From a virus: a stretch of 64,000 bases of DNA. The DNA lies in IMG/VR virus record IMGVR_UViG_3300044701_002547, positions 41,676 through 105,675 of that record. One strand, written 5' to 3'. Below the pieces are notes generated by a model that saw only the letters and a list, made by a program, of their open reading frames with translations, did not search any database and had not been told where the DNA came from. Shown piece by piece: positions 34,697-63,429 of the stretch; within the stretch, counting starts at the first letter, position 1; each line of letters opens with the position of its first letter. The position numbers and the translations under genes were made by a program.

Positions 34697-36433
34697 ATGG
34701 CAAATAATTATAGAAAGTCATTTAATTTTAGAAGTGGCGTTCAGGTTGATAATGATAATTTTATTGTAGATCCAAATGGATTAGTCGGAATTGGTACTTC
34801 TATTCCGACTGAATTTTTTGATCTTCGTGGAAATGCAAAAATTGTTGGATTAGTTACGGCAAATAATCTAGCAGTATCTGGAGTCTCCACATTTTATAAT
34901 GATGTAAAAGTAGGAACAGGAATTACATTTAACCCTTCTACTGGGGCAGTTAATGCGACAACATTTTATGGAAGTGCTGGAGGTCTTACAGGATTTTATG
35001 CTGTTGCAATTGATGGATGGTACATAGACATTCCCAACTCTGGAATTTTTACAACATTTAAAGTTGGTATAGGAACTACTTTTCCTCAGTATTCTTTGCA
35101 GATTGGAGAGGATCCTATAACTGGGACTGGATTTTCTGTAGATGAATTGACAGGTAACGTATATACTACTGGAATTATTACTGCAAACTCTTTTGTTGGA
35201 GTTGGAACAGGATTAACTGACCTAAATGCGTCGAATATTTCTTCGGGAACAATAAGTTCGGAAAGATTACCAGTTCTTCCTAATGCTAAAATTCCAGATA
35301 ATTTCCAAGTTGCTGGAATTATTACTGCCCTAGGTTCATTTAATGGAACTCTAGTTGGGATTGCATCTACAGCAAGAGATTTAACTTCTAATGCTACAAT
35401 TAATATAGAAGCAGCAACTGTTGGAGTTTCTACAATTTCCACAAGACTTAGAACAAGTGGGTCAGTTGGAGTGAATACAGATGTACCTTATGCTGCTGTT
35501 CACGTTGTAGGATCATCGAGCACTACATTACATCTTACTGCAGATACAACTAATATTACTTTAGGTAGAAGTTTAAGTCCGACGGGAAATACTGGAGGTC
35601 TTAGATTTGGTAATACGAATGGATTATATCCTTCAAGCACAACTAGGTCTTTAGACATTATTAACTATGATACTGGAAATTTAAATTATTATTTACATTA
35701 TGGAGTCTCTGGAGTTGGAACTGGCAATTTCAATTGGATATATGCTCCAGATTCAACAAATGCATTGATGACCTTGACCTATGGTGGAAGACTTGGTATA
35801 GGTATTACAAATCCAACACATAGTCTTGAAGTAAATGGATCTGCACAAGTTACATCTTTAAATGTTAGTGGAAGTGTTTATGCAACTGGTGTAGGAGCTA
35901 CTGTAACTGTAAGAGATCTTTATATTTTAGATGGTCAAAATGGTGTAGTAGATGCTGACGGATCTTCTTTGTTTGATTTACCATTAAACTTTACCTCTGG
36001 AATTTCAACATTCTATGATCTTAAAGTAACTAATTTGGGACTTTTTGAACAAAAAATTGGTATTGGAAATATAAATCCATTAGAACCTTTACACATTGGT
36101 GGTGATTATTTAATTGATCCAGAAGATGCTGTAGTTATTAATTCTTCTGGAATTGGAATTGGAACAACGGCACTTAGATATGGAGCAGGAATTGAAGGAA
36201 TTAGTGTAACAGCATTATTTGGTTCAGTTGGAGTAGGAACAACTAATCCAGATAATCCAAGTGATCCAGCTGGAACAAGAGTACGTGTAGATGGAGATGT
36301 GGCAATTAGAGCTGGAGATCTTTATGTTGGTGTCAGTACGGCAAGGGGTGTAATATTAACATCTCCAAACGGAACAAAATATCGATTAACTGTCTCTAAT
36401 ACTGGAACTTTAAGTACTGTTTTAGTGCCATAA
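34697..36433 (+). CDS. Tail fibre protein
   Basis: Repeated VGIGT..P fibre motifs; C-terminal LTSPNGTKYRLTVSNTG. Confidence 0.75.
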   Translation: MANNYRKSFNFRSGVQVDNDNFIVDPNGLVGIGTSIPTEFFDLRGNAKIVGLVTANNLAVSGVSTFYNDVKVGTGITFNPSTGAVNATTFYGSAGGLTGFYAVAIDGWYIDIPNSGIFTTFKVGIGTTFPQYSLQIGEDPITGTGFSVDELTGNVYTTGIITANSFVGVGTGLTDLNASNISSGTISSERLPVLPNAKIPDNFQVAGIITALGSFNGTLVGIASTARDLTSNATINIEAATVGVSTISTRLRTSGSVGVNTDVPYAAVHVVGSSSTTLHLTADTTNITLGRSLSPTGNTGGLRFGNTNGLYPSSTTRSLDIINYDTGNLNYYLHYGVSGVGTGNFNWIYAPDSTNALMTLTYGGRLGIGITNPTHSLEVNGSAQVTSLNVSGSVYATGVGATVTVRDLYILDGQNGVVDADGSSLFDLPLNFTSGISTFYDLKVTNLGLFEQKIGIGNINPLEPLHIGGDYLIDPEDAVVINSSGIGIGTTALRYGAGIEGISVTALFGSVGVGTTNPDNPSDPAGTRVRVDGDVAIRAGDLYVGVSTARGVILTSPNGTKYRLTVSNTGTLSTVLVP

Positions 36434-36515
36434 CAACCACTTTCCAAACTGGCACACAGGGGGTCGCAAGACCCCTTTTTTGCTGCTATAATACTTTCAT
36501 ATTCAGCAGAGAACC

Positions 36516-37742
36516 GTGATTCAACTCCGTCCTCACCAACAGACTGCTCTGGATGCCCTCGCTCAGCATTCTAAGGGTATCTGTGTGTTCCCGACTGGTG
36601 GTGGTAAGACCAACGTGGGAATCTTCGATGCTATGCGTGAGTTTCAGTCTGACGCCCCTAAGACCGTTGTAGTGGTTGCTCCTCGCATTCTGCTTGCCGA
36701 GCAACTCTCCAGTGAGTATCTGGAGTTCATCACTACCGTTGCTGTGCTTCACGTTCATTCGGGTGAGACGCACCACTATAGCACGACCAAACCCGCAGAG
36801 ATTTACAACTGGTGCCGTCGTGCCTACAAGCATCAACTGATTTTCACCACCTATAACTCTCTGCAGCGTCTGGTTGATGCAGATATTGAGGTGGATACGA
36901 TCTACTTTGATGAGGCACATAATAGCGTTCAGCGTCACTTCTTCCCTGCCGTTGAGCACTTTGCTGCTGAGGCAAAGCGTTGTTATTTCTTCACCGCCAC
37001 GCCCAAGTATTCTGTGACTGTGGGTAAGGCAGGTATGAACGACGCTGATGTGTATGGTCAAATCATCGCTAAGGTTCCTGCTCCTGAACTGGTGGAGGGT
37101 GGTTACATCATTCCCCCTAAGGTCATCACCGCCCCGATGCGCCTCTCTGTGAAGGGTGAGGACATCGCCCAGCGTGACTGTGAGTATCTGCTCCAGATCA
37201 TTCAGGAGAACCCTGTGGATAAGATTCTGGTGTGTGCGAAGGCAACCAAGCACATCATCGGTCTGCTGTCTGAAACTGACTTTGCCCAGCAACTGGAAGA
37301 GGCAGGATACTCTGTGCTTCACATCACCGCAAAGCACGGTGCTTTTATTGACGGTCAGAAAGTCAATCGTGAGGTGTTCTTTGATACGCTGAATGAGTGG
37401 GGCAAGGATGCCGACAAGAAGTTTGTGGTTCTTCATCACAGCATTCTTGCCGAAGGCATCAACATCTCTGCTCTGGAAGCGGTCGTGTTCCTGCGCTCTA
37501 TGGACGTTGTGGGCATCGGGCAGACGGTTGGGCGTACTCTGCGTCTTCACCCCGCTGACGCTGCTGGAATCCGCTCTGGTGCGCTTCAGGCGGGCGCTCT
37601 GGAGTCCTACACCAAGTCCTATGGTCTGGTGGTCTGCCCCGTGTTTGACCGTGCTTCTGCGGGCACTGCGAAGGCAGTCCAGAACGTCGTGGATATCATC
37701 TTTGAGCAGGGTGACGTTGCCGTCAGTGTTGTTAGGAGGTAA
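36516..37742 (+). CDS. Superfamily II (DEAH) helicase
   Basis: LRPHQ, PTGGGKT, DEAH, TATP, LAEGINI, QTVGRTLR. Confidence 0.9.
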   Translation: MIQLRPHQQTALDALAQHSKGICVFPTGGGKTNVGIFDAMREFQSDAPKTVVVVAPRILLAEQLSSEYLEFITTVAVLHVHSGETHHYSTTKPAEIYNWCRRAYKHQLIFTTYNSLQRLVDADIEVDTIYFDEAHNSVQRHFFPAVEHFAAEAKRCYFFTATPKYSVTVGKAGMNDADVYGQIIAKVPAPELVEGGYIIPPKVITAPMRLSVKGEDIAQRDCEYLLQIIQENPVDKILVCAKATKHIIGLLSETDFAQQLEEAGYSVLHITAKHGAFIDGQKVNREVFFDTLNEWGKDADKKFVVLHHSILAEGINISALEAVVFLRSMDVVGIGQTVGRTLRLHPADAAGIRSGALQAGALESYTKSYGLVVCPVFDRASAGTAKAVQNVVDIIFEQGDVAVSVVRR

Positions 37743-37743
37743 G

Positions 37744-38421
37744 ATGACTGAAGAATTAAAAATCTATGCTGAACCAATTACGTCTTTGTATTATGTAAAA
37801 TCTAAAATTCCAAATAAAATATTGAATCTAATAAACGAGGACATTGATTATCTTCTAAACAATAAAGATGAGTTTAAAAAATGGAATCAATATTTGGCTG
37901 GAAATATTTCTGAAGAATATAAATTTTCTGGGAAAAGTTATGAATTATTAGAAGAATTTGTTTTAAAAATCGCTGAAAATTATTTTTATGTTATTGAGGA
38001 TGAAAAATTAAACCCATATAAAAAATATGATCATTTTGATACATTTTTTAACAAAGAAAGGACATATATTCTTGAAAGTTTGTGGGTAAATTTTCAGAAA
38101 AAATATGAATTCAATCCCATTCACTCCCATAGCGGAGATTATTCTTTTGTGATTTGGGTTCGAATACCTTATGATCTTCAAAATGAATTGAATCAGGATA
38201 ATTGTAAGAATTCAAATCAAGCATTCAATTCTTTGTTTTCCTTCTCCTTCACTTCTGCATCTGGAGATATTCAGTCTTTGACATTAGAAATAGATAAAAC
38301 CTGGGAAGGTGTTATAGTAATGTTTCCATCTTGGCTTATGCACACAGTATATCCTTTTTATACTTCAGATGACTATAGAGTCTCTATTGCGGGAAATATA
38401 TACCTAAGAGAAGAAATGTAA
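37744..38421 (+). CDS. 2OG-Fe(II) oxygenase
   Basis: WVN...FNPIHSHSG...MFPSWLMHTVYP...RVSIAGN; real start inferred at MTEELK. Confidence 0.8.
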   Translation: MTEELKIYAEPITSLYYVKSKIPNKILNLINEDIDYLLNNKDEFKKWNQYLAGNISEEYKFSGKSYELLEEFVLKIAENYFYVIEDEKLNPYKKYDHFDTFFNKERTYILESLWVNFQKKYEFNPIHSHSGDYSFVIWVRIPYDLQNELNQDNCKNSNQAFNSLFSFSFTSASGDIQSLTLEIDKTWEGVIVMFPSWLMHTVYPFYTSDDYRVSIAGNIYLREEM

Positions 38422-39090: not shown

Positions 39091-39703
39091 TGTTTATGAT
39101 GAATTTTTTTCTGAGGAAGATCACCAGTTTATATTCAACTATTGTGAAAATGCCTCATATTTCTATGGAGAAAAGGATAAGGAATATGATGGCCCATACT
39201 ATGAAAATTATGAAAAAGATCTTGCGAAATATTGTACTGGATTAGTTCATGAAGTTTATTTTTATAGGGATGAACTAAATGAACTTCCTTCATATGAAGA
39301 AGTGTATTTGCCTGGTGGTGGATGTAATAAATTCATAAATCAAAGAAAATTCTTTGATTTATTTACTTTGGCGATAGAAAATAGATTTCCAATCTATAAA
39401 CAAAAAGATGTCACTCGTGTGTACATTAATTGTTTTGCCCCCTTAGAGAACCCATATTTTCATACTGATGGTGATATAGGTACAACATTTTTATATTATC
39501 CAAACAAAAGATGGGAATTGGATGAGGGGGGAGAAACTCAATTTTTTATTGATAATAGCATTTATGGAGTACCACCTATTCCAAACCGCCTAATTTATTT
39601 TGACGCTAATTTACTTCATAGGGCAACTTCTTTTCGTAGCTCTCATAGATTTTCAATTGCCGTCAAGTATCAAATGCATGAAAGTCCCAATTGGAAAGAT
39701 TGA
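39080..39703 (+). CDS. 2OG-Fe(II) oxygenase (prolyl hydroxylase-like)
   Basis: FHTD, GGETQF, PNRLIYFD...HRA...RFSIAVK. Confidence 0.8.
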   Translation: MTINVYDEFFSEEDHQFIFNYCENASYFYGEKDKEYDGPYYENYEKDLAKYCTGLVHEVYFYRDELNELPSYEEVYLPGGGCNKFINQRKFFDLFTLAIENRFPIYKQKDVTRVYINCFAPLENPYFHTDGDIGTTFLYYPNKRWELDEGGETQFFIDNSIYGVPPIPNRLIYFDANLLHRATSFRSSHRFSIAVKYQMHESPNWKD

Positions 39704-39787
39704 CCAAGACACTTTTTAAACTGGCACATAGGAGATTTACAGAACCCAAATATTTTACTATAATACTAAGGTAATCCACAGAAATCC

Positions 39788-41351: not shown

Positions 41352-44300
41352 CTTGACGAATAGCAAAAAGCACTCTATAATATCCGCATATACATTTTGA
41401 TTATGGAATACAAACCCTATAGTGTGGAATGGAATCGGCGGAGGTATCTTGCCGAAGCAATTCAACAATACTTTGATACTGATGCTTCTGTAGATATTGT
41501 CCTAGACGATATTGTGAGTGTTCTTGAAGAGAATGTAGAATATCATAAGAGTCGTGCAGAAAGATTTCAAGAAGTATTGGATGGTTTGAAATCTCTTCCA
41601 TACTAATAAGATGTGTTAAGAATTCCACACAGAACTCCTACATAATGCTAGAATAATGAGGTCATAAAAATGAGCGAAAATTCTTTGTTATGATATTCTT
41701 TGTGCGTGGAGGTATTATGCACAATTTAATTTCTTACAATCAACTTGCTTCTTGGAACCACTTAGATCAAACAATAGATAAATTCATTGAGGAAACTGAA
41801 ATTATTAACGATTACTATCAGTGTTTAATTGAGTGTAGTGATAATCAAGCAGAGTGTAAACGAATTTGTAAAGCAATATTGTCCTCCTAGACCAGTTTAG
41901 AAACCGTCCATCGACCCTTGACTTTCCCAGTCAGGGGTCTTATAGTATGTTCATTGATCCCGCAAAACCTGCATTATGTATTCCGCAAAAGTTACATTGA
42001 AGTATGATTCCGTTTGGGAACATAAAGGTGGCATCTACGATGATGAGATTCTTCCAGAGGAACACTATACTTTTCAGGTTCCTGCCGAAGACCTCAATGC
42101 CATTCAACTCTTTCAACTCTTTGAGAAGTTCTGTTATGCTATGGGACATAATGCTGATGGTATTGCCAAGGGTGCCGCATATGTCGCATTCAACGAAATG
42201 CGTACTGTAGAAGCGATGCGTAAGACTGCCGAAGAGTATGACCTGATTCTGGCAGAGGATTATCACAAAAAACTTGTAGAGTATGATGCTCAACAGGATA
42301 AAGATATTAAAGAACTGGAAGCAGAAGTTCGTGACCTTAAGGCAAAACTCTCCCGTCTTGAGAATCTTGATAATCCTCAATATACTGATGAGGAAATGGA
42401 TGCGATGAGTGCTGAATATATTGCCTGGAATAGTCTTATTCCTGGTAGTTATGCTGCTGTTGAAAATGGATGTAAGTGTCCTGTGATGGATAATGAAGAA
42501 ATGCCAGACGATAAAAAATGGGTAAATGGTGATTGTCCTCTTCACGGTAAAGTAAAATGAAACCAAACACATATGTAATTCTTGAGCGAGCAGTAGAAGA
42601 AGGAGCACTTCTCGGATATCGCCGTGCTTTCAAACACGTTGAAAATCCATCCGAGGGTGCTATAGTAGATGCGATCACAGAGGCAGTAATGCTCTCAGTG
42701 AGTGAAGTGTTTATGTTCTCTGATGTTTCTACTGGAGATAGTTATCAATGAATGATATACATTATGGTTGGGTTGTGAATACTCATTATGACTGGATGAA
42801 TATGCTCGTCAAAATGAAAGAAAAGAAACCACATCGTTTTGAGGAGTTTCAGTATTCCAACGGCACTATTTACCACTACATAGATAGAATTCAACAAGAA
42901 CAGAACTTATATGACTGAGAGAGCATCGGAATTTATGAAATGTATCTGGGATGCCCGACAGATGGGAGCAGATACTGAAGAGAAACTTGTTGCATTTATT
43001 CTACGTTTAGCATCAGGACAAATCAAAAATTATACAGCACAAAATGATTTGATTGTGTTGGACCAAAAAGATATGATTGAACTTGCAAACGAAATTGAGA
43101 GCCTAAAATGAAACTCATTACATTCAAACATCGTGAAGATTTTGGGAACGAATACTATGTTCAGATTCTTCACAATAAACGCTGGGCACTTCTTCAAGCA
43201 TCTGTAAGTTGGAATGATTATCCATCTTGGCCTTATATTCAAATCAAATCAGGAACTGGTAGTACCTTGAGTATTCTGTTCTGGGCATATAAGTTTGGAT
43301 TTGATATTGGAGTGATTGAACGCACTTGGAATTGGAACCGTGATGAAGAAGATGAAACCACTACCTGATAAACTACAACTTGATATTATGTGGGCAGTCG
43401 CCACAAGTACCAGTATTGAAACTGGCATAAGACCCCACTACGGGTTCGCAAAGATGCTGTATGATGAACTCAACGACATTCAACCACCAGTAGGACTTGG
43501 AAATGAGAAAGGTCACAGTCAAACCTAAAAGCAGCAAGGCAAAGAACCGCCTTTTCAACATTATGGAAAACAATCCTGTCTGTACTGTGGAACAGGAATG
43601 TGATGGTGATTTGTTCCTTGTTTCTGAAAATCGTAAGTACAGTTTCTGGGTCAGTATTCGTACTGGAAGTAATCGTTTCGGTGACAAAACCTGTAAAGAT
43701 TGGGAGATTATTGAGGAGGCAAACTAATGAGATTTCGTAACATAGAGTTCCGTTGGAGCACCTGTAACAAAAAGTATGAACTTATCCGTTGGTATAAGGC
43801 AGAAGTAGATGGTTGTGAGGAGAGAGAGTATTGTTATGTCGTTGCTTTCTTTGATAAAGAAAAAGAATATTACTCTATGAGAACCATAAGTGATAGATTC
43901 TTTGAGGATAAAGATGCCTTTGTAGTAGGTAAGTATGGTCTGGAGTTTCTAAATGCAATCTTTGAGATTGAAAGAATTGAAGAGGAACTGAAATAGGACA
44001 CTTGAGAAACCGTCACAAGGGCACTTGAAAACAGTTGCTTTTTCTGTTATGATACTTTTATAGATAAAAAACAAATGACGATTTTTAGATACAAAAAAGA
44101 CCAAAACCTTTATCTTCTTTACGAACAGATGAGACCCTGTTATAATCTTGTAGCAGTTCCTTATTTTCCAAATCAAGGAGTTCTTGCTAAAAGTAAGAGG
44201 AATATTTCTATGGAAGATTTTATTGTGGTTGCTGAACGATGACTGACGAAGAATGGGAAACCGCACTCAAAAGTATGAATGAGGGTGTGAAAAAGTGGGT

Positions 44301-47300
44301 GGATGAAGAAATTGATAAAATCAAGTATAATATCATCAAAGACATTATTAATGAGGAAGTGAAATGACCTATAAGTGCCCAAGATGTATTGAAAGAGGAC
44401 AAACTTGGAGTGGTGATGCTCCCAAGTGTGGTTTTGACGAGGACGGAAACTTCCTTGAAAACAACTGGAACTGTGCTACACTAAATGCTCTTCGTGAGAT
44501 GGGAGAGGAAGGTAGAGTGTGGTGTGACGAACAGAATGTGACGATTATAAAAAGAGATGATGTTGGGCACGGTATTCTGTCTTGGTATAAAAGTCGTGGA
44601 GCAACTGATGACTTTCGTAATGGATGGTTTGAGAAAGGAACACTTAAGTATGCCCAAGAACTTCTTGGTGATATTGAACCTGATTTAGGAGATTGGTGAT
44701 GACTAAAGAAATTGAACTGCTAAAACAAGAAATCAAAATGCTTCAAAGTAAGTTGGAGTTTTTGGAAGAGATTGAAACACATAAATCTCAACCAAGAATG
44801 ACCCTTGAAAATACTGTTGAGGGTGAGATTGTCTCTTATAATGATGAGATTTATTATCGTCTGGAATATCCAACTGCTGTTATTTGGTATAAGAGAAAAG
44901 GAAATATTGCTGTTAATGCTAGTGGTGTGAAGTTGGTATGTGTTACTGACTTGGAAACTCATCGTCTTCTTGAAGGACTTTGGTTTAATGAGGTAAAACA
45001 CGGAAAGTATCCTGATGAAGTAGAATGTCCTGATGAACCAGAGTATTATGATGAAGTAGAATGGGATGAGAAAGATAATCCAAAACCTATGGATGATGTT
45101 GTGAATAGATTGGTGAAAAAATACCAAGCACAAAAACTCTGGAATAGGGTAAGAGATGAACTTGGATATTCTATTGATTTGTGTGATGAGATTGTGGATT
45201 TGGTGGAGGACTGGTTGCCGAAAGAACAATCTGCTGCTGGGTCACAAAATGTAGATACTGAATTACTTGTAGATGGTTTCAATCACGCAATACAAAAAAT
45301 GAAGGAGATGCTACGATGACTAAACAATATCCAATACAAGACTGGGAGTTTGTTGAAGACATAGAAAATGCCTTCAATGAATGGTTTTATGGAAATCATA
45401 CTGAATGGACTTGGACTGTTGAATGGTTTGCGGGAGACTGTTCTATTGAAGACCCAAAGACCCGTGAAGACCTGATGAGAAAATGGGTGTATGCTGCGTT
45501 TTATGAGGGTTTTATGCGAGGAAAGTATGCTAAAATAGAAGACCAAGTAGGATTGACGAACAATGACTGAGAGAACCGACGACTGGCGCACAATCTTTGG
45601 AGACCTCACAGATGCTGGAGTTTATGAGATGTGTGAAATCAACGCATATAAATTAGCATCACACCTTGAGGAACTCTACCTGAAAATTGCCGAACTGGAG
45701 GCAAAGGTAAATGAGAATTGAAATTACTTATACACCACATCCAACAAAAGGATACACGGCAACAATCTGGGATGGTCCTGATGGAATTGATGAAGACAGT
45801 TTCGTTTGTCGTAGTCTTGGAGAATGTTTTGAGCAGATTGTAATGTGGAGAACACTTAACGCACAACAATACAAAGATGACTGAAGAATACGGGCACATT
45901 CCAGATGGGTTTATACTCAATCCAGAAGAAATCCAAGAACTCCGCAAACAAAAACACGAACTGACTGAATACGGCAAAGAGAAACTGAGGAAACTTATGA
46001 ACCACGAAGAAATGCTTGAAGAGGCAGCACGAAGAGAGAGAAGTAATCGTGTGCTTCAACGATATAATGACTTCTACAATCTGGAATGTGCTGGACTACC
46101 TCACGGAACACCAATCACCCCAGAACAACAACAAGCAATCACATTAGATTGTATGATTGCTGCTCTGCGGTGTGAGAACCTCAACCGTGAATATAATGAG
46201 ATTGCGATTGCTGATATTGAGGACTTGATTGAAGGACTTTATCAACAAGGTAAAGATTATCTCCAAAGAGTAAAAGAATTCAAAGATAGTGCGGAGGGTG
46301 TAGCATAATGTTATCACCCGCAGATAGAATTGTAGAAGCAACTTTAGCATATACTCTCCGTCCAAAAGGAAATGATAGGGAGAAAGTAATTGCTGCTGCT
46401 CTGGAGTTTGTAATTCACGAGTACCAAGATTATCGTGAGTTTGGATGTGGTGAGAGGGTTATTTCCTGTGCTGATTTATGGGAACTAATTGATGAACTGA
46501 GGGACACGGAGACACTTGAAGAACTGGCACAAGACCCCTCCACAGGGGCACCAGATGCCTTATAATACATAAGAACACACAGAACTCCAATGACTTTTCA
46601 ACCTTACAATGTAGTTCCTGGAACTCAAATTGTTCATAGTACCACTGATGTTTATGAACTCACCGATGAGGCAGAAGGAATGATTTATCGGGTAGAACTC
46701 CAAGCAGATAATGTAGGAGTTTATATCAAATCTGGGGAGCGAGGAATTGAAGAAGGTTCTAAAAACATCAGCGAAGATATGTCTATCGCAAACAAAGAAC
46801 TTGCGATTGTTGTTGCTCGTCGTATTCTTGAACTTTATCAGGCAAACTGAAATGAACCTCACAACCCGACAACTGAATATTCTTTCCATTTCTCTTACTA
46901 TGTTTTATGATGAGGTTGCGAAAGACGGAAGTAGTGCTAAAATGAAACAGGACATTAAGGAACTTCACAAACTGGTGAATGATGAGTTTGCTAAATCTTT
47001 TGCTAATTCACAATGAACGAACTACAAAATGTTGATGAACTCTTCTTGGATAATGTGAGCGTTCATTATGAAGTAATGGGAGATGATGCCGTTTGGTTCT
47101 CATTTACACATCCAAACGGTCAAATAGATCATTTCAACATCGTTCGCAAAGGTAAGAAACTTTCAACACTTTATAGTTGTAATACTGGAAATGTGAATGG
47201 TATGAATGTAGAAGAACCTACGATTGTTCCAGAGCATCGTTATTGAGGACACCTGATGACCTACGACCAACTCTATGATTATGTGGTGAAGTATGTTGCT

Positions 47301-47691
47301 TCTCCTCATACTACCATCACAGAACACGACCATCGCCGCACTTGTCTAATTCTTAGTGCATTTATGGAGTTTATCCTTGACTGTCAAGAGGAAGGTGTGG
47401 ATGCGAATACTATTGACATCACTGACTTTATACACAAAAAACTTGATGTGATTGAAGGAAAATGAGATTACCAAAATGGGTTATATCAATTCTGAATGGA
47501 TTTGATAGCATCTATATTGCCATTATGTTCCGTTTGGATTATAATGACAACATAGACCGTTGTGCCTTCTTTGAGGAACTCAATTATGGTTGGTGTCAGA
47601 TGCAAGATGAATACTCAATGTCTCAACCAAACTTTGACCCATATAATCTGTCGGGTAGAGACCCTTATTATTCTTATGTGATGAGTAAGAA

Positions 47692-52077: not shown

Positions 52078-52290
52078 ATGGACAATATCGACCAACATAT
52101 TGAAAAAGATAAGCAAGTTCTCGATGATCCCACTATCTCTCCGCAGACACGTCGGCACACTGCAGAAGAATTAGAAGCACTCAAGGCATATAAAGAACAT
52201 CATCCAGAAGATACACACGATCCAACACCTCTTGAACTGTACTGTGATTCACATCCTGATGCATTGGAATGTAGATTTTACGAAGACTGA
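52078..52290 (+). CDS. cp12: Calvin cycle inhibitor CP12
   Basis: C-terminal LELYCDSHPDALECRFYED signature; ATAAATA upstream. Confidence 0.88.
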   Translation: MDNIDQHIEKDKQVLDDPTISPQTRRHTAEELEALKAYKEHHPEDTHDPTPLELYCDSHPDALECRFYED

Positions 52291-52369
52291 GGACACTTTA
52301 ACAACTGGCACACAGGGGGTTCTCAGGGCACTGGGGACCCCTTATAATATGAATAATTCAATTCAAACC

Positions 52370-52969
52370 ATGTATCCCTCAATTCTTATTGAAGTTGTTA
52401 AGTATTTGAACTCAATCTCCATTGATATTACCGAAAGTCATGAAGACGGACGAGTGAATAGTATTGGTGATGAGCAAACAATCATCAATCTTCTCATCAA
52501 AAAGTATGGTGATAATATTGAAATTCCCAAAGCAAGGAGTTGGTGGGATGTAAAAGTATTTGGATATCCTCTCAATATCAAATCTTCCAAGTATGGATCT
52601 GCTGCTGATAACTTCTCTTCAAAAGCAGCAGTTCTATATGCTCTTACCAATCTTCCAGAAGAAAAAGTAAAAGTAACTTCGTGGAAGAAGTTTCAAGACG
52701 CTCTTCTCAATCACAGTTCTGAAGATAATCATCGGGATTATCATATCTTTTCCCTGAATAAGCAAACCAATCAGGTTCATCTTTCTTCATTGAAGACTCT
52801 CAGTAAGATTACTCCTAATGGCAATAATCTCCCATTTCAAATCAAGTGGCGTGATAACATTCAACCCGTTCAACGTACTCATAGACAAGCATATGAATTT
52901 CTGGTAGAATGCTACAAGGAGTCTGTTCGACGTAAAATTAGTGCCCACGATGGTTTTGAAGAACTTTGA
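52370..52969 (+). CDS. Putative restriction endonuclease-like nuclease
   Basis: E...WWDVKVFGYPLNIKSS (PD-(D/E)XK-like); overlaps the downstream MTase. Confidence 0.55.
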   Translation: MYPSILIEVVKYLNSISIDITESHEDGRVNSIGDEQTIINLLIKKYGDNIEIPKARSWWDVKVFGYPLNIKSSKYGSAADNFSSKAAVLYALTNLPEEKVKVTSWKKFQDALLNHSSEDNHRDYHIFSLNKQTNQVHLSSLKTLSKITPNGNNLPFQIKWRDNIQPVQRTHRQAYEFLVECYKESVRRKISAHDGFEEL

Positions 52970-53756
52970 TCTACATCTAGGAGATTGTCTAGAGATAATG
53001 GATGAGATTCCAGACGAATCCATTGATTTTATTTGCTGTGATCCACCATACGGAACTACTTCTATCAAGTGGGATTCCGTGTTAGATTTCAATAAGATGT
53101 GGGAGCAGTATGGAAGAATCATCAAACCTAAAGGTATGATCTGTTTGTTTGGTTCTCAACCATTCTCAGCACAACTTATTTGTTCTAAGATTGACTGGTT
53201 CAAGTATGAATTGGTCTGGAACAAAAACAAGTGTGGTTCTCCTGGTCTTGCAAAGTATAGACCTATGAAGACACACGAAAATATTCTTTTGTTTGCAAAG
53301 AATGCTGGTGGTACATATAATCCACAGATGGAGAAAGGCGAACCATACTCCCGCACCAGTAAGAATCCAGAAGGATATGTTGGTCGCAAAAACGATCACG
53401 GATATGGTATGAAACCACGCAAATCGTTTAGTAATGAAGGAACGCGGTATCCAAAATCTATTTTGAATATTTCCCGCGATTTCAGCGCCCAACAGCAGGT
53501 TCATCCAACTCAGAAACCAGTTCCTCTGCTGGAATGGTTAGTGAAAACTTATTCCGATGAAGAAGAGATTATTCTTGACAATTGTATGGGATCGGGTTCT
53601 ACTGGAGTTGCTGCTGTCAAGTTGAATCGCAGATTTATTGGAATTGAATCTGATCCAGAGTATTATCAGATCGCAAAAGAAAGAATTGAGTCTGCTGTGC
53701 CAGTTGAAGAACTGGCACAGTTCCCCCAGAATCCCCTGCTGGATGCCCTATACTAA
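52950..53756 (+). CDS. DNA methyltransferase, N4/N6 beta class
   Basis: GDCLE, DPPY, HPTQKP, ILDNCMGSGSTG. Confidence 0.9.
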   Translation: MVLKNFDLHLGDCLEIMDEIPDESIDFICCDPPYGTTSIKWDSVLDFNKMWEQYGRIIKPKGMICLFGSQPFSAQLICSKIDWFKYELVWNKNKCGSPGLAKYRPMKTHENILLFAKNAGGTYNPQMEKGEPYSRTSKNPEGYVGRKNDHGYGMKPRKSFSNEGTRYPKSILNISRDFSAQQQVHPTQKPVPLLEWLVKTYSDEEEIILDNCMGSGSTGVAAVKLNRRFIGIESDPEYYQIAKERIESAVPVEELAQFPQNPLLDALY

Positions 53757-53779: not shown

Positions 53780-54208
53780 ATGGCAACCCGCTCTCGCATT
53801 GGTCTTGAACTCTCTGACGGTTCTGTGCTCTCCGCTTATCATCATTGGGATGGTTATCCCGAATGGTTGGGACGCATTCTGAACACTCATTACAACAGCA
53901 AAGATGCTGCTGCCGAACTGATTGACGGTGGTGATATGTCTTGCTGCTGGACTGATGAAATTTGGGACGCAAAACGCGATGAGAATGATGATTGCATCGT
54001 GAAGAAGTACGGTCCAATGTATTACTCCCAAAGGGGCGAAGAATGCCCTCCTCGCCTTGATAACAACATCGGTGAATACCTTTGTGATGGTGAAGAGTAT
54101 GCCTATCTCTTCCGCAATGGTGAATGGGTGTGCTACAATATGAATCAGTTTGAGGATAGCAAACTCCCCGAAATCGTTGAAATCCCCAAAGGAGCACTCG
54201 CAGTATGA
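53780..54208 (+). CDS. Conserved phage hypothetical protein
   Basis: MATRSRIG...YHHWDGYP...EEYAYLF. Confidence 0.7.
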   Translation: MATRSRIGLELSDGSVLSAYHHWDGYPEWLGRILNTHYNSKDAAAELIDGGDMSCCWTDEIWDAKRDENDDCIVKKYGPMYYSQRGEECPPRLDNNIGEYLCDGEEYAYLFRNGEWVCYNMNQFEDSKLPEIVEIPKGALAV

Positions 54209-54429
54209 TTAACTTCATTTCTGGAACCATCTTTGGTATTATTGTTGCAACGATTGGATTCACTCCAGTTGCTGGTGCCCTAGATGGTATGATGCTCAAC
54301 CTACAGAAAACTACTGTAGAAATGAATGCCCCGAAACTGCCTCCCCCCTAGGACAGTTCAATAACTGGCACACAGGGCATCCCAGACGCCTCTGGATGCC
54401 CTATAATACTTTCATACGCAACGAACCCG

Positions 54430-54885
54430 ATGACTTCTGCTTTTCTCACCAAGGACTTCAGTGACTTCTGTGCTCAACGTGATGCCCAGAATACCATCCA
54501 ACTGAATGTTGTTAAGTATTGCTGGCAGTTGTGTGAAGCACTGCGTCAGAACTACATTGACTACAGCATCAAATCTCATCAGCGTTCCCTTGAGCGTGGT
54601 GAGAGCGTTGATTATCACAATGCCTGCATCACCGACCTGAAGAATGGTAAGTGTGATTATGACTTCACCTTTGAGTCTGGTAAGAAATATCACAAAATCA
54701 TTATGAATGCCAATGGTTCGCGCTCGGTTCATGCTTTTGTGGATAAGAAGACTGGTGAGGTTTATAAGTCTGCCAGTTGGAAATCTCCTGCCAAAGGTGT
54801 TCGTTATGACCTTCGCATCATTGAGCAGCGTGAATGGTTGTTTGAGAATGCCGATTGGGCGGGTTCTTACCTCTACGCTAAGTGA
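54430..54885 (+). CDS. Conserved phage hypothetical protein
   Basis: SVHAFVDKKTGEVYKSASWKSPAKGVRY. Confidence 0.7.
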   Translation: MTSAFLTKDFSDFCAQRDAQNTIQLNVVKYCWQLCEALRQNYIDYSIKSHQRSLERGESVDYHNACITDLKNGKCDYDFTFESGKKYHKIIMNANGSRSVHAFVDKKTGEVYKSASWKSPAKGVRYDLRIIEQREWLFENADWAGSYLYAK

Positions 54886-54949: not shown

Positions 54950-55426
54950 ATGTCTTACATCACGTATTCTGGATATGGTTATTCTAAACTCCTCTGTGAG
55001 GATGTTGCCACTTGGTTTTTGAATAAGTTTCTGCCCCGCCATAAGATTGATGTGGAGATTCTACATCGTGGTTTGAGAAGAGAGGGTGCTTATGGTTATT
55101 GTGATGTTTCAGGAGAAACTCAACGCCCCCGTGAGTTTCTGATTGAAATGAATACTCATATGGATGAAGAGTTGTATATAAAAACTCTTTTACACGAACT
55201 GACTCACCTGCGGCAGTGGGTGGTAGGTTCTCTGCGACTTCGCTACGGAAAAATGTGTTATAATAAAGAATCTGTGGAAGATACGGATTATTGGGATCAA
55301 CCGCACGAAATAGAGGCGCTGGAACAAGAAGAAACACTATATCTGGAGTATATGAGAGAAAAGCACGGTGTTGATTTAGATGATACAATTACCATTACCT
55401 TTACAAGACCAAGACATTTGCTATGA
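54950..55426 (+). CDS. HEXXH metallopeptidase-like protein
   Basis: TLLHELTHLRQ...YWDQPHEIEA. Confidence 0.7.
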   Translation: MSYITYSGYGYSKLLCEDVATWFLNKFLPRHKIDVEILHRGLRREGAYGYCDVSGETQRPREFLIEMNTHMDEELYIKTLLHELTHLRQWVVGSLRLRYGKMCYNKESVEDTDYWDQPHEIEALEQEETLYLEYMREKHGVDLDDTITITFTRPRHLL

Positions 55427-55992
55427 CATTAGACAGTGGAAAACTGATGTATTCGGAAGGTAACAACGATGAGTGTTACACGCCAAATTACGGGGTAACT
55501 CCCATTCTGAAGTATATTCCCAAAGATGTGACCGTCTGGTGTCCATTTGATACGATGGACAGTGAGTTTGTCAAGCAAATCTCAAAGCAAAATGAGGTTG
55601 TATTCACTCATATTAAGTATGGACAGGACTTTTTCACCTACCAACCATCTAAATGGGATGTAATTGTATCCAATCCACCATTCACAAACAAGCGTAAGTT
55701 CTTTGAGCGAGCACTATCATTCAACAAACCATTTGCTCTGATTATGACTAACACCTGGTTGAATGACAGTGCTCCAAAGCAACTCTTCAAGGACAAGGAT
55801 CTGCAACTGCTGATGTTTGATAAACGTATGAAGTTTCATAGCCCTGATGGTCGCCCGAATGATAAGATCACATTCAGCAGCAGTTACTATTGCTGGAACT
55901 TTCTACCAAAACAAATCATTATGGAAGAACTGACTGTGCCACCTTCCAAACTGGCACAACGGTCTCCAAGCGAGGCGGTTTTGCCATTATAA
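55423..55992 (+). CDS. Putative DNA adenine methyltransferase
   Basis: DECYTP, VWCPFD, QDFF, SNPPF. Confidence 0.75.
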   Translation: MTLDSGKLMYSEGNNDECYTPNYGVTPILKYIPKDVTVWCPFDTMDSEFVKQISKQNEVVFTHIKYGQDFFTYQPSKWDVIVSNPPFTNKRKFFERALSFNKPFALIMTNTWLNDSAPKQLFKDKDLQLLMFDKRMKFHSPDGRPNDKITFSSSYYCWNFLPKQIIMEELTVPPSKLAQRSPSEAVLPL

Positions 55993-56022
55993 TTACAAGG
56001 TAATCAACGGACACCACCCCAG

Positions 56023-59688: not shown

Positions 59689-59716
59689 AGAGGGTCTTCA
59701 CCGACTCTCTTTTTTT
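59689..59716 (+). terminator. Intrinsic terminator
   Basis: AGAGGGTC-loop-GACTCTCT followed by a T tract. Confidence 0.7.
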
Positions 59717-59717
59717 A

Positions 59718-60455
59718 TTATCCAAAGAACCAGTAATATCCTCTCCAACTAAACCGACCAGGATTCTTAAGACTCTTCACAATACCTGTACCTTTTCCTT
59801 TTTCACTTAATTCACGCACTGCTGCTGCTATACTTTCGAACCGAACTTCAATTAGTTCGGTTTTTTTATTGACACCGAATACTGATTTCTTTTTACTCTT
59901 CTCTTCCATAATCTGCCATTTATGACCATATGCTGTTCCACCAGTTCTAGCAGCAAGTAGTATGTTAGCATTTCTACCAGGATCGCCAGTAATCTCTTTT
60001 GCTGCTATTCTTGCATTCTCATAATCAGTACAGATACCAGTCACTAAGTTCTTACTTCTAATCTTGAGTCCGCAGTGCTTACCATTTCCCCTGTTTTCTT
60101 CTGTTAGAGAACCCCAAGATTTGTATTCCGATTTAAGTTTAATTATTTTGGGTTCAGGTTTAGGTATGGGTATAGGAGTTACATTCTCAATTAGTTCATT
60201 ATATTCAGGTTGATGTTGATCTATCCAATATAATTCTTTATCATTCAATAAACGTTCATCACATTCATCTATCTCTTTAATCATAAAGTTATTATTACCA
60301 TACTTTCTCATCGCACGGTGTAATGGTTTTGAAGACATTTTCAGTGCTTCTTGTATGTGTTGCTGCCACTGTTTGTTCATTCCCTGAGTGGTCTGCCCAA
60401 CGTATTTGTGCCCGTTTTGTTTATTGAGAATGAGATAGATGATTCCTTGTGCCAT
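59718..60455 (-). mobile_element. GIY-YIG homing endonuclease with NUMOD1-like tail
   Basis: GIIYLI...KYVGQT, AMRKYG, ELYWI, EYN; FESIAAA...GYYW. Confidence 0.8.
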
Positions 60456-60719: not shown

Positions 60720-60827
60720 AGCGTACCATAAGACTCGCAGTTTGTCAAGCCACACCGCCGCCCCAGATCCCCAGTCCCACACAGAAGACTCATAATACTT
60801 GACAGACTTATGAGTTCGTGGTAGAAT
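60720..60827. promoter_or_regulatory. Divergent sigma70 promoter pair
   Basis: Minus: TTGACA-17-TACGCT (60748-60720); plus: TTGACA-17-TAGAAT (60799-60827). Confidence 0.65.
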
Positions 60828-61156: not shown

Positions 61157-61186
61157 TATAATAATCATACACACACCACAAGACCC

Positions 61187-61336: not shown

Positions 61337-62203
61337 GAATGTGACAGTTCTCGAAGTGGCACACACCCCCTTGATATCCTGATCAGGGGGTGTTATGTTG
61401 TGTCAGTACTGAGGAATTCGCCGTGACTGAAGTTAAAGTTCGGGTCGAAACTAACGATGGTTGTGTTACCTTTTGGTATGAGAAGTCCAGAGGTAAGAAC
61501 CCCACCGAAGTTGTCTGCAATCGTGTCACAAACCAGCTGATGGGTTTGAATATCAAACAGGTGAGTGTGACAGTTGCCTAAGTGTCACAAAGGGGGTTGC
61601 ATAGGACCCTAGGACCTGATACATTACATTCGTCGCTGAGATTCCCAATGATTTTCGCCATCTCCAAACTCAACAACTGCACCTATACTCTGGATGCAAA
61701 CAATCAGCGGGTTCTGATGTATGCTCCGCTGCTGCCTGATGGATCCTATGAGACTGCAGGATCTGCCTATGATTGGGTGGAGTGGGACCGTCTGGATGAT
61801 GATATCCTGGAAGAGGCAGATCGGATTCATAAACTGCTGCTGGCGGAGGTGTGACACTCTAAGAACTGGCACAGGGGTGGTTGCGCTTCTGCCGCCACCC
61901 TGTTATTCTACATTCATACCAAACAAATCCAATGACTACCTTTCTCACCAAAGCACAGCGCCAGATCTTGATTGATTGGTATATTGACTGCCTGATTGAA
62001 ACTGAGTCTGAGTTTGTTGATGGAAGTGAAGAAGCAGAGCGTCAAAGTTTGGCGTCGATGAATAACTCTTACTTCTATGAGTATGTTCAGGAGATGATGC
62101 CTAACTGTATGCAAGATCTTGCAAAAATGAAATAGGGTGTGACACTCTGAGAACTGGCACAGACCCCCTTGTGCCCCGCCTGAATCCCTGTTATCTTAGT
62201 TTC

Positions 62204-62283
62204 AGGTTGAGGGGGGCAATAAGACCACCCCGCTGCCGCCCTACGGGTCCACTGGGCATTCGCCTGGCAGCAAACCTCAACCT
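62204..62283 (+). ncRNA. Candidate structured 5' leader RNA
   Basis: AGGTTGAGG/CCTCAACCT closing stem encloses GGGG/CCCC and a GCTGCC/GGCAGC multibranch. Confidence 0.55.
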
Positions 62284-62312
62284 TTCCAACATTCTTTCCC
62301 GAGACCCTACCG

Positions 62313-62729
62313 ATGAGCGTTACCTTGACCGTGAACTACAAAGAAGTCTTCGCTGCTCAAACTGTAGAAAAGATTGATGAATTGCTGGAAGACAACTATG
62401 CCATCGATGACATTCTGGAGTTCATTGATGCTCGTAATGAGGAGGATTTCGTTGCCTTCTATGAAGAGTACGTGACTCAAGGTGAGAATCTGGGTTATGA
62501 TGTTGTGGATGCATTCGTAGAGTATCACGGGATTTCTTACGTAGAGCACACTGGAGATGCCTATCGTGGGCATTATGATTCGGGTGCTGACTTTGCCGAA
62601 GAATACTATAGTGATGTCTATGGTGATGTTCCTTCGTTCCTTGTTGTAGATTGGGAAGCAACTTGGAATCAGAGTCTCTATTATGACTTTGATTTCGTAG
62701 ATGGTTATGTGTTCAGTAGTAGTTTCTAG
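62313..62729 (+). CDS. ArdA-like antirestriction (DNA mimic) protein
   Basis: Highly acidic; AYRGHYDSGADFAEEYY...VVDWEATW...DGYVF resembles the ArdA C-terminal domain. Confidence 0.65.
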   Translation: MSVTLTVNYKEVFAAQTVEKIDELLEDNYAIDDILEFIDARNEEDFVAFYEEYVTQGENLGYDVVDAFVEYHGISYVEHTGDAYRGHYDSGADFAEEYYSDVYGDVPSFLVVDWEATWNQSLYYDFDFVDGYVFSSSF

Positions 62730-62870
62730 TCTAGATCTACACACTATCATACAGATCTCGTCGAGACCTACACACATCTCGACGAGATCATCACATCATC
62801 ATACATCAATCTAGTGCATATGTCAACTAGATACACACATCTAGATCATCACATATACATCTAGATTGCA
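62725..62870. repeat. Array 2 of the 11-bp palindromes
   Basis: TCTAGTCTAGA 62725, TCTCGTCGAGA 62756, TCTCGACGAGA 62777; half-sites at 62810, 62840, 62860. Confidence 0.75.
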
Positions 62871-63208
62871 TATATAATACAACATATATGATGTGCGAGA
62901 GTTCATCCTATCTCTGGTAAACAAAATAGGACATAATACATACGTGACGAGTAAGAATAAAAAAATACAGGACGATTCCTGATAGAATAATTTATTTTAA
63001 TTCTATCACTTAGGAATCATATTATTGTGCCTAAGATTCTTATAATAACTCTAAGAGCTTATATTATTATCTTCAACGGGAACAAACCTAGTCTAATGGG
63101 TATTTTAAATATTGTCAAGCCCCATTGTGCCAGTTCGTATAGTGGCACAAGATCGGTTGAATTCCGATGATCACCTGGTATTGTACATTCGTTCCTGAGG
63201 TTTTGTTT

Positions 63209-63355
63209 ATGTGTGGTCCTGCTTTTGATTATAGTTTCCAAGATTTCCTGAATGATGCCTCCCCCGAAGAATGGGCAGAATGGGAGAACAAAGCTGCCGA
63301 ACTTGAGGTTCCTGTAGATTACTATCTCCAAGAGTTCGTTGCCTGTGCCAGTTGA
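63209..63355 (+). CDS. Small acidic protein
   Basis: MCGPAFDYSF...AAELEVPVDYYLQEF; first gene of a cassette. Confidence 0.6.
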   Translation: MCGPAFDYSFQDFLNDASPEEWAEWENKAAELEVPVDYYLQEFVACAS

Positions 63356-63429
63356 GAGAGTGGCACAAGGGGGGTTGCAATGCCCCCCAGACCCTGATAC
63401 ATTACATTCGTCCCTGAAGGAACCCACCA

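Follow-up and report, generated by a model that had tools for sequence, protein, structure and literature searches.

A 24-bp palindrome in putative early-promoter modules at cassette junctions of T4-like cyanophages

The window analyzed here, 64,000 nucleotides in length, corresponds to positions 41676-105675 of the 105,675-bp (105.7-kb) virus contig IMGVR_UViG_3300044701_002547. Between 36433 and 63367 it carries 14 clear copies and one weak copy of the dyad TGTGMCASTT-N4-AASTGKCACA, all on the + strand and each followed by a -10 element (Table 1). The cargo listed in a preliminary description of this DNA was recovered: a helicase with three 2OG-Fe(II) oxygenases, an endonuclease with an N6/N4 methyltransferase, an acidic protein of an anti-restriction family, and acidic peptides. 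The name "anti-defence regulon" proposed there fits one anti-restriction-family gene and two methyltransferases, but the function of most of the cargo is unassigned.

Table 1. Dyad copies in the window with their promoter elements and genes (window coordinates; gene functions are predicted)
Copy	Span and strand	Dyad	Promoter elements and hairpin	Neighboring genes
Module 1	36433..36492 +	36433-36456	terminator-like hairpin 36458-36477 with T-run; TGn-TATAAT 36487-36492	predicted helicase 36516-37742 and three predicted 2OG-Fe(II) oxygenase genes
Module 2	39705..39764 +	39705-39728	TTTACA-17-TATAAT (39736-39764); without hairpin	48-aa gene at 39788
Weak copy	43406..43465 +	AGTACCAGTATTGAAACTGGCATA; PWM 14-18 bits only	TATGAT at 30 nt	
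Module 3	43994..44053 +	43994-44017	TTGAAA-17-TGtTATGAT	55-aa gene at 44075
Module 4	46508..46566 +	46508-46531	short CCCCT/AGGGG hairpin; TATAAT at 29 nt	upstream ORF reads through dyad (ETLEELA); downstream 86-aa acidic gene at 46590
Module 5	52289..52348 +	52289-52312	strong hairpin (-21.5 kcal/mol); TATAAT	predicted endonuclease (phrog_3978) and N6/N4 DNA methyltransferase, 52349-53756
Module 6	53696..53754 +	53696-53719, perfect palindrome	TATACT at 29 nt	within methyltransferase ORF 3′ end (VPVEELA); predicted cargo 142-aa acidic gene 53780-54208 (phrog_1987)
Module 7	54349..54407 +	54349-54372	strong hairpin (-16.5); TATAAT	predicted cargo DUF7717 gene 54430-54885
Module 8	55935..55993 +	55935-55958	TATAAT at 29 nt	within 3′ end of methylase-like ORF 55423-55992 (VPPSKLA); predicted cargo 65-aa gene at 56023 and series of small genes
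Module 9	61340..61399 +	61340-61363	TTGATA-17-TGtTATGTT; hairpin 61367-61390	52-aa gene 61423-61581
Module 10	61566..61625 +	61566-61589	TTGCAT-17-TACATT	68-aa acidic gene 61648-61854 (phrog_13788)
Module 11	61850..61909 +	61850-61873	TTGCGC-17-TATTCT; strong hairpin	67-aa acidic gene 61932-62135
Module 12	62138..62197 +	62138-62161	TTGTGC-17-TATCTT; 152-nt leader	anti-restriction-family gene 62313-62729 (phrog_36653; 32 D+E vs 4 K+R)
Module 13	63126..63184 +	63126-63149	TTGAAT-type -35; TATTGT	48-aa acidic gene 63209-63355
Module 14	63344..63403 +	63344-63367	TTGCAA-17-TACATT; strong hairpin	42-aa very acidic gene 63430-63558

A pattern search allowing up to 3 mismatches returned 13 dyad matches, where 0.03 were expected. 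When the whole 105,675-bp contig was scanned with a position weight matrix (PWM), 14 dyads scored 24.9-36 bits, besides the weak copy at 43406, and the other 78 kb of the contig (its first 78 kb) contained no copy. Perfect half-sites AASTGKCACA numbered 16 in the whole contig, all of them within dyads (~0.8 expected). The copies, all in one orientation, are thereby confined to the part of the contig with small genes. The 15 copies of the preliminary description, their confinement to the right of 36.4 kb, the perfect copy at 53696 and the extra identity shared by the copies at 61566 and 63344 were thus all found again. Its contrast between a conserved right arm and a degenerating left arm stands for the right arm, in which 8 of 10 positions are invariant; on the left only the outer TGT is degenerate (decayed in 6 of 14 copies), and positions 4-10 are conserved.

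The -10 hexamer, of the TAnnnT type, begins 29 or 30 nt past the dyad in 15/15 copies, the fixed distance described earlier. As had also been described, several promoters have poor -35 boxes: TTGnnn is present in only 8/15 copies, and a TGn extension likewise in 8/15. Most spacers have a GC content of 0.57-0.70, versus 35-40% for the genome. A strong GC-rich hairpin (z ≤ -3.4, shuffle test) was detected in the spacers of 7/15 copies, which is about half and not "most", as had been claimed; these hairpins lie inside the promoter spacer, and only two passed a terminator scan. Start codons lie 58-65 nt past the dyad in 12/15 copies; the module measures ~85 bp, and if transcription starts 7 nt past the -10 box, the dyad spans approximately -66 to -43. 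The overlap with the last codons of the upstream gene was seen again, as upstream ORFs traverse the dyad in a single frame (ETLEELA, VPVEELA, VPPSKLA), with stop codons 34-37 nt beyond it, about at the -10 box.

A comparison across relatives, which had been proposed as a check, showed the dyad and its promoter module, with the same geometry, in >100 IMG/VR contigs. At ≤2 mismatches, dyads were present in 6/6 reference cyanomyoviruses (Syn9, 3; S-PM2, 7; S-SKS1, 8; P-HM2, 6; S-CRM01, 13; P-SSM2, 12), those of Syn9 standing ahead of gp73, gp78, gp79 and gp89/90. Reversed-pattern controls gave 0 matches in the same search of the reference genomes, and T4 and the Pelagibacter T4-like phage HTVC008M contained 0 dyads at the same threshold. 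Occurrence follows host phylum and not phage relatedness, which speaks for a host factor. The palindrome is not private to this contig: T4-like cyanophages have it as a promoter element throughout the clade. It is also very probably the "novel regulatory element" that Doron et al. 2016 (ISME J 10:1437) reportedly described at early genes of T4-like cyanophages (Syn9, P-TIM40), and that is said to differ from a plain sigma-70 promoter and to be abundant and conserved in these phages and in metagenomes. The dyad module, too, lies 5′ of early genes, is not plain sigma-70 and is abundant in cyanophages and metagenomes, a likeness by description and not by logo. To our knowledge, neither the PlmA link nor the role at cassette junctions set out below forms part of that study.

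The link to early expression came from P-HM2, in which the Early (A) genes are PHM2_056-070, 072-074, 135 and 136 (PMC5082946 S2 Table), 20 of 242 genes. Dyad-promoters lie ahead of PHM2_060, 061, 064, 066, 068 and 135, all Early (A), and no unit of the published Early (A) cluster lacks such a gene at its head; counted as sites genome-wide, 4/6 head Early (A) units and 2/6 head Mid (B) genes. Because Early (A) units of P-HM2 are preceded by it, the dyad was taken to be an early-promoter element of T4-like cyanophages. By extension from this relative, the genes of the contig studied would belong to the early class, in agreement with the early regulon first suggested.

Our reading, to which we assign a probability of about 70%, is that the copies are upstream dyads of early-promoter modules that T4-like cyanophages keep at a fixed length and that double as homology patches for cassette exchange. 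Such a module consists of the dyad, a GC-rich spacer, the -10 box 29-30 nt past the dyad, a short leader and a start codon ~60 nt past the dyad, with the spacer often holding the terminator hairpin of the preceding gene and sometimes a TTGnnn -35. Just after DNA entry, unmodified host RNA polymerase with the primary sigma factor would read the -10 box, and a protein bound to the dyad as two protomers would supply the contact missing from the weak or absent -35. With the -35 contact replaced in this way, all marked cassettes would fire together as an early class. We infer that the dyad activates rather than represses.

A possible binder is suggested by CGRE1, a 21-22-nt palindrome of marine picocyanobacteria that begins at -55 to -57 of yfr2 (Lambrecht et al. 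2018, PMC6191309) and that PMM1637 binds and activates, according to pull-down, EMSA and reporter assays and an R50A mutant (PMC6191309). Upstream regions of yfr2 that we extracted from Rfam RF01701 gave AACTGKCAC-N1-2-GTGMCAGTT, and the 9-bp half-site AACTG(G/T)CAC, including the G/T wobble, is common to the phage dyad and to host CGRE1. Both are palindromes located upstream of or overlapping the promoter -35 region, CGRE1 beginning 55-57 nt 5′ of the transcription start and the phage dyad lying at ~ -66 to -43 under the assumption given above. The arrangement differs: with H = GTGMCAGTT, the host site is rc(H)-N1-2-H and the phage site is H-N4-rc(H), and the half-site in the same orientation is ~5 bp (about half a helical turn) farther from the -10 box in yfr2 than in the phage, by our own reading of the -10. 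Because the order of half-sites is swapped, a rigid symmetric dimer could not bind both alike, and PlmA is a candidate and not a demonstrated binder. The host-type arrangement AACTGKCAC-N1-2-GTGMCAGTT was not found in the contig, and five complete host genomes contain essentially no phage-type 24-mer, which implies that the host itself does not use H-N4-rc(H). Screening for GntR domains gave one strong gene in each host genome and none in the contig or the four reference cyanophages examined. The most likely binder is the host's single GntR-family regulator, PlmA (PMM1637), a candidate which, judged from half-site identity, we hold at somewhat less than even odds. No binding protein had been recognized in the preliminary description; host PlmA/PMM1637 is now a testable candidate activator.

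The alternative idea of a recombination anchor was examined in homology blocks shared with related contigs. Modules make up 4.4% of the sequence and contain 125/619 block ends, a 4.6-fold enrichment, versus only 1.4-fold for control gene starts; the related contigs were picked for carrying a perfect dyad, the block ends are not independent events, and a motif conserved at the edge of a module is enough to extend alignments to its border. Many blocks end at 61363 (module 9), and >20 begin exactly at 63344 (module 14). Cassette order is permuted in contigs L101, L077, L117, L123, L048, L079 and L086. Contig L008 lacks the nuclease and methyltransferase cassette of module 5, and its crossover lies inside the module, just past the -10 box. 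Breakpoints of gain and loss in relatives, which had been suggested as a check, therefore include homology breakpoints and one indel junction on the module, in keeping with the anchor reading. Because it is repeated ahead of many small genes, the ~85-bp module probably also serves as a homology patch through which single-gene cassettes enter, leave, replace one another or change order in related phages.

Other explanations were weighed against this reading. The dyad could be bound by a phage protein; this might be an activator delivered with the virion, but a repressor made early or in the middle phase that turns off the early class is more plausible. T4 injects the protein Alt, which favors early promoters, and this provides a precedent. 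A factor with its own geometry would also fit an H-N4-rc(H) arrangement that host genomes do not use, and the copies from 61340 to 63344, whose -35 and TGn -10 boxes are usable, may need no activator. We nevertheless regard a phage binder as unlikely, since the half-site is base for base that of a proven host factor, wobble included, and the phage genomes screened, for the GntR fold only, lack such a domain. In generalist cyanophages early genes are expressed even in resistant strains (PMC6708340), which fits a universal host factor and is still compatible with an injected one. It is improbable that the host RNA polymerase holoenzyme reads the dyad directly, with no extra factor, as if it were an UP element or an alternative contact for sigma: the position at -66 to -43 is that of an UP element and conservation is stronger in the arm nearer the promoter, but UP elements are A/T-rich and lack dyad symmetry, the distal arm too is nearly invariant at positions 4-10 even where there is no divergent promoter, and the half-site is that of a known transcription factor.

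Two further explanations were considered. The perfect copy could fold into a 10-bp stem with a 4-nt loop, and PeSLs have a stem-loop just 5′ of the promoter (PMC4122927), so at the 3′ end of the upstream gene the palindrome might work as a hairpin, in RNA or DNA, that serves as terminator, processing site or transcript-stabilizing stem. Among 133 distinct sites, however, positions 5/20 are complementary in 46% (42% expected if independent) and positions 8/17 in 19% (37% expected). The degenerate arm positions thus do not covary, with compensatory variation absent at both variable stem positions, and this argues that the dyad is a protein site rather than a hairpin. Also against the hairpin are the decay of the outer left arm, the lack of a T-run after the palindrome, a spacing to the -10 box fixed within 1 nt and the presence of a separate GC-rich hairpin as the terminator-like part; we consider it the least credible of the explanations. 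Scarcely more credible is a dedicated site, comparable to integron attC, where cassettes are moved by a site-specific recombinase or a homing endonuclease. Breakpoints do cluster at dyad edges, and a GIY-YIG endonuclease gene (59718-60455) lies in the region, but no integrase was seen in the window, and crossovers vary in position, past the -10 box in L008 and elsewhere at either edge of the dyad or close to the start codon, which fits homologous exchange across an 85-bp repeat. A recombinase site would moreover leave the promoter geometry and the link to early expression unexplained.

The early-promoter module was also compared with known systems. PeSLs (Arbiol et al. 2010; Comeau et al. 2014, PMC4122927) unite promoter and terminator in one composite cassette in T4-like phages and are not reported as frequent in cyanophages (PMC4503421). 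Both kinds of element are short, repeated early-promoter modules with a terminator hairpin, located between small non-essential genes of hyperplastic regions, and at both, relatives differ by indels, replacements and changes of gene order. In a PeSL a stem-loop, free in sequence if pairing is kept, lies 5′ of a near-consensus -35/-10 pair, whereas the dyad module has a sequence-specific palindrome not kept as a stem, a hairpin within the spacer and often no -35; the structure-conserved terminator stem-loop found just upstream in PeSLs has no counterpart here, as the stem does not covary. T4 middle promoters similarly combine a -10 with a specific upstream box that replaces the -35, and host RNA polymerase recognizes them with the help of an adaptor, but the MotA box is a 9-bp, non-palindromic sequence at -30 that requires phage MotA and AsiA and defines the middle and not the early class; cyanophages lack MotA and AsiA (PMC2984593). 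The outer TGTG...CACA bases resemble CRP/FNR-family sites (TGTGA-N6-TCACA; NtcA GTA-N8-TAC), and NtcA-type cyanobacterial promoters likewise place a dyad 5′ of a -10-only promoter. The outer TGTG and CACA of the phage dyad are 16 bp apart and not 8, and its center is at ~ -54 and not -41.5 or -61.5; this spacing (TGTG-N16-CACA versus TGTGA-N6-TCACA) does not match a CRP-type site. IncN CUP repeats, a conserved upstream repeat before genes of the plasmid leading region, may be likened to the module by functional analogy only.

The 24-bp palindrome TGTGMCASTT-N4-AASTGKCACA (the dyad), together with its spacer, -10 box and leader up to the start codon (the module), is very probably the early-promoter element published for T4-like cyanophages (Doron et al., 2016). 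This contig is therefore very probably one more carrier of a known type of element, not of a new kind. At ≤3 mismatches, a pattern search returned 13 matches against 0.03 expected, and a PWM derived from the copies and scanned over the whole contig gave 14 strong copies and one weak copy (43406). All copies lie in one orientation within 36433-63367, no dyad was detected by PWM in the remaining 78 kb, and 16/16 perfect 10-bp half-sites of the contig fall within dyads. The preliminary description, which had reported a repeated palindrome restricted to the region right of 36.4 kb and set at a fixed distance from -10 boxes, is borne out: a -10-like hexamer begins 29 or 30 nt past the dyad in 15/15 copies. 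A TTGnnn -35 box, 7 nt past the dyad with a 17-nt spacer to the -10, is present in 8/15, as is a TGn extended -10. The GC-rich spacer hairpin ascribed to most copies is real and far more stable than shuffles, but was found in 7/15, which is not most; two of these seven spacers passed a terminator scan. The next gene's start codon lies 58-65 nt beyond the dyad in 12/15 copies, and the module is therefore of fixed length. The extra identity of the twin copies at 61566 and 63344 and the nature of the downstream cargo are as described.

As also described, three upstream ORFs continue across the dyad, in one common frame, and end 34-37 nt past it, about at the -10 box, so that the promoter is partly coding sequence (Table). 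Leaders after the -10 boxes fall into two families in the window, AAGGTAATC(A/C)AC behind TATAAT-type promoters (modules 39705, 53696, 55935) and ACATTC(G/A)T behind TTGnnn/TAcatT-type promoters (modules 61566, 61850, 63126, 63344); both also occur in further contigs and in Syn9 (ATAAGAGTCAAAG). An anti-restriction-family gene begins 152 nt past its dyad, as opposed to the usual ~60 nt, and its GC-rich leader may contain a small ORF or a structured 5′ UTR.

Covariation was analyzed in 133 distinct sites, collected with a scan pattern that left both variable arm positions free. Positions 5 and 20 were complementary in 46% of sites (42% expected) and positions 8 and 17 in 19% (37% expected). A hairpin function of the palindrome was rejected, since neither of these two variable arm positions covaried, and the spacing between dyad and -10 box is constant to one nucleotide. 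By these sequence measures, the dyad is a protein site and not a hairpin. Positions 4-10 of the distal arm are nearly invariant in the window even though no leftward promoter exists, which favours the binding of two protomers at a single promoter. A sigma-54 promoter (TGGCAC-N5-TTGC) was rejected because 8 nt separate TGGCAC from TTG and cyanobacteria are not known to possess sigma-54; a CRP-type site was likewise rejected on spacing.

A scan of the whole contig and its relatives, as the preliminary description had proposed, placed the dyad in all six reference cyanomyoviruses and, by exact pattern, in at least 120 IMG/VR contigs. Among the IMG/VR matches listed, many contigs carry 2-5 copies and most have a -10 at the same 29-30 nt on one or both sides of the dyad. 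Reference genomes were counted at ≤2 mismatches, with a reversed-pattern control of 0 in every genome: Syn9, S-PM2 and S-SKS1, which infect marine Synechococcus, contain 3, 7 and 8 copies, P-HM2 and P-SSM2 of Prochlorococcus 6 and 12, and S-CRM01 of freshwater Synechococcus 13. At the same threshold none was found in T4 (host E. coli) or in HTVC008M (NC_020484, host Pelagibacter). HTVC008M is classified in Kyanoviridae beside the cyanophages, whose cyanobacterial members tested each carry 3-13 dyads, yet it is dyad-less; the dyad thus tracks host phylum and not phage relatedness.

Three IMG/VR contigs contain head-to-tail module arrays (Table). The unit is 58 bp, in up to ~6 complete copies, and consists of the dyad, 7 nt, TTGACA, a 17-nt spacer and the -10-like TGTGATAGA, which overlaps the following dyad; no genes lie between units. 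For L044 and L049, whose arrays have a period of 58, a CRISPR reading was rejected, as the units are head-to-tail promoter modules. Stacked promoters are one possible reading of the arrays, and a sink that takes up the dyad-binding protein is another.

The link to early genes was drawn from P-HM2, all 242 genes of which have been clustered by expression time, with PHM2_056-070, 072-074, 135 and 136 forming the Early (A) cluster (Thompson et al., 2016; PMC5082946, S2 Table). Dyad promoters precede PHM2_060, 061, 064, 066, 068 and 135, all Early (A), with two dyads in tandem ahead of PHM2_061 and one palindrome shared by the divergent units of PHM2_064 and 066; at 39292 a promoter stands on both flanks and a single palindrome serves both. 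From these positions, every early transcription unit of P-HM2 begins at a dyad. Genome-wide, 4/6 P-HM2 sites head Early (A) genes, a class accounting for 8% of the genome; dyads also precede PHM2_053 and 189, both of Mid (B), the cluster adjoining Early (A) in S2 Table. In Syn9, dyads precede gp73, gp78, gp79 and gp89/90 in the small-gene block. The early-regulon reading offered in the preliminary description is thereby supported through relatives. Early-gene transcription in Syn9 and P-TIM40 is reported, by the study that described it, to be controlled by a 'novel regulatory element', middle genes reportedly being driven by host-like promoters and these elements reportedly being abundant and conserved among T4-like cyanophages. 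All results agree with this description, including several dyad-less, near-consensus sigma-70 promoters in the small-gene region of the window, candidate 'host-like' middle promoters of cyanophages (Table). Full-text searches found no literature that prints the cyanophage early motif; identity of the dyad with the published one (Doron et al., 2016) is probable.

Breakpoints were compared between 36-64 kb of the window and IMG/VR loci. Of 619 usable homology-block ends, 125 fall inside modules, which make up 4.4% of the sequence, as against a 1.4-fold enrichment in control windows before other gene starts; the compared contigs were chosen for a perfect dyad and are mutually related, so these counts are not independent events. 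Left block ends cluster at the dyad start, and right ends both where the dyad stops and close to the start codon. Beyond a conserved block at 60.6-61.3 kb, single-gene cassettes (labelled A-F) occur in differing orders and subsets in seven contigs. A related locus, L008, follows the module at 52289 through its -10 and then switches to the leader and gene of the module at 53696, whereas the window has an additional endonuclease and methyltransferase cassette with a module on each side. Breakpoints, permuted cassettes and the L008 indel support, through relatives, the recombination-anchor reading of the preliminary description, and are evidence that the module is also the exchange unit of the early region, a role beyond the literature searched. 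PeSLs, the composite promoter/stem-loop cassettes of other T4-like phages, behave similarly at cassette junctions (PMC4122927); in the dyad module, unlike in PeSLs, the upstream palindrome is sequence-specific and not structural, the hairpin lies within the spacer and the -35 is often absent.

Lambrecht et al. (2018; PMC6191309) describe CGRE1, a palindrome of 21-22 nt that begins 55-57 nt ahead of the yfr2 sRNA start, and the GntR-type regulator PMM1637 (PlmA), which was pulled down with CGRE1, shifts it and activates through it. We derived the CGRE1 sequence from the upstream regions of yfr2 genes (Rfam Cyano-1, RF01701) of Prochlorococcus and Synechococcus genomes, which contain AACTG(G/T)CAC-N1-2-GTG(A/C)CAGTT; perfect copies of this type number at most one per genome, adjoin yfr2 and are present in 10/42 genomes (control 0). 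The 9-bp half-site is identical in phage dyad and host CGRE1, wobble included, an identity that goes beyond the literature searched, and each host genome has one strong GntR gene. On this sequence match PlmA is a candidate binder of the dyad, at somewhat under even odds. Simple equivalence with CGRE1 is opposed by the swapped half-site order (phage GTGMCAGTT-N4-AACTGKCAC, host AACTGKCAC-N1-2-GTGMCAGTT), by the exclusivity of the two arrangements, the phage-type 24-mer being all but missing from five complete host genomes and the host type not found in the contig, and by a distance to the -10 that differs by ~5 bp in our own reading of the host promoters. The DNA-binding domains of GntR regulators are flexibly tethered. 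The CGRE1 paper (PMC6191309) cites relatives whose binding sites are direct repeats, and with domains so tethered PlmA could possibly bind the swapped dyad in a different mode.

A factor encoded by the phage itself, whether an activator or a shut-off repressor, is an unlikely binder; no GntR domain is encoded by the contig or four reference cyanophages, and a phage GntR homologue was accordingly dropped. Direct recognition of the dyad by RNA polymerase is less likely than either PlmA or a phage factor. The dyad was rejected as a site of a host regulon, given the near absence of the 24-mer from the five host genomes. A lone host match with 2 mismatches, in Prochlorococcus marinus str. SB, has a perfect right arm AACTGGCACA and a degenerate left arm and lies ~95 nt ahead of a gene for a secreted protein; there is no yfr2 in the vicinity, the -10 spacing does not fit and the match may be chance.

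With a probability of roughly 0.35, T4-like cyanophages would start infection by borrowing PlmA through a rearranged CGRE1 before every early cassette. To our knowledge, PlmA is the one GntR-family regulator of all cyanobacteria and is confined to them, and it is coupled to PII-PipX, the sensor of nitrogen and energy status. PlmA-dependent early expression, largely of anti-defence and takeover genes, would function whichever cyanobacterium is infected and could be adjusted by that host's nitrogen and light status, and the module would let phages trade early cassettes. The question addressed is how these phages, which as far as we know lack the T4 RNA polymerase-reprogramming proteins Alt, ModA/B, MotA and AsiA, launch a near-identical early programme in very different hosts; the half-site identity ties it to a host activator site already purified and assayed. 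Full-text searches found no literature linking PlmA or CGRE1 to cyanophage promoters; if PlmA is the binder, phage takeover would be linked to host nitrogen/energy signalling. As an exchange unit, the module would explain how cyanophages, marine and freshwater alike, shuffle orphan peptides, methyltransferases and anti-restriction genes. In annotation, it flags likely early genes and start codons in uncultured cyanophage contigs.

Table. Positions of features in the window and, where a locus is named, in related sequences
Feature	Position	Remark
Helicase ORF	36516-37742	~350-nt overlap with next ORF, different frames
First oxygenase ORF	37393-38421	oxygenase domain at residues 230-334
ORF crossing dyad	46308-46565	ETLEELA
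ORF crossing dyad	52941-53756	VPVEELA
ORF crossing dyad	55423-55992	VPPSKLA
Endonuclease (phrog_3978) and N6/N4 DNA methyltransferase pair	52349-53756	
Perfect palindrome	53696-53719	
Dyad-less sigma-70 promoter	41353-41381	11/12 consensus matches
Dyad-less sigma-70 promoter	47517-47545	11/12 consensus matches
Dyad-less sigma-70 promoter	48765-48794	11/12 consensus matches
Dyad-less sigma-70 promoter	50391-50420	11/12 consensus matches
Dyad-less sigma-70 promoter	50568-50596	11/12 consensus matches
Dyad-less sigma-70 promoter	60799-60827	11/12 consensus matches
Terminator-like hairpin	59689-59710	
GIY-YIG endonuclease gene	59718-60455	- strand
Terminator-like hairpin	59838-59863	
GC-rich leader	62162-62312	
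Possible small ORF	62171-62377	
Anti-restriction-family gene	62313-62729	
Module array	L044:88-786	
Module array	L049:1110-2862	
Module array	L107:1643-2237	
Lone host match	L214:1501-1524	G001:C1:61119-61142

The window forms the final 64 kb of an IMG/VR viral contig, which is 105,675 bp long and about half complete. Its left part encodes glycosyltransferases and tail-fibre/baseplate-type proteins, and from 36.5 kb rightward a helicase and three 2OG-Fe(II) oxygenases are followed by dozens of small + strand genes. Because its helicase is 52-57% identical to counterparts in several hundred marine Synechococcus and Prochlorococcus myoviruses, the contig is a T4-like cyanomyovirus; it has no close cultured relative, helicase identity to any cultured phage reaching 57% at most and cultured phages matching 52-58 kb by megablast in short patches only. 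The true start of the first oxygenase ORF probably lies much later, given the position of its domain. The endonuclease and methyltransferase pair resembles a restriction-modification-type cassette. The GIY-YIG endonuclease gene, the sole clear minus-strand gene in the region, has terminator-like hairpins nearby and is probably a mobile homing-endonuclease insertion.
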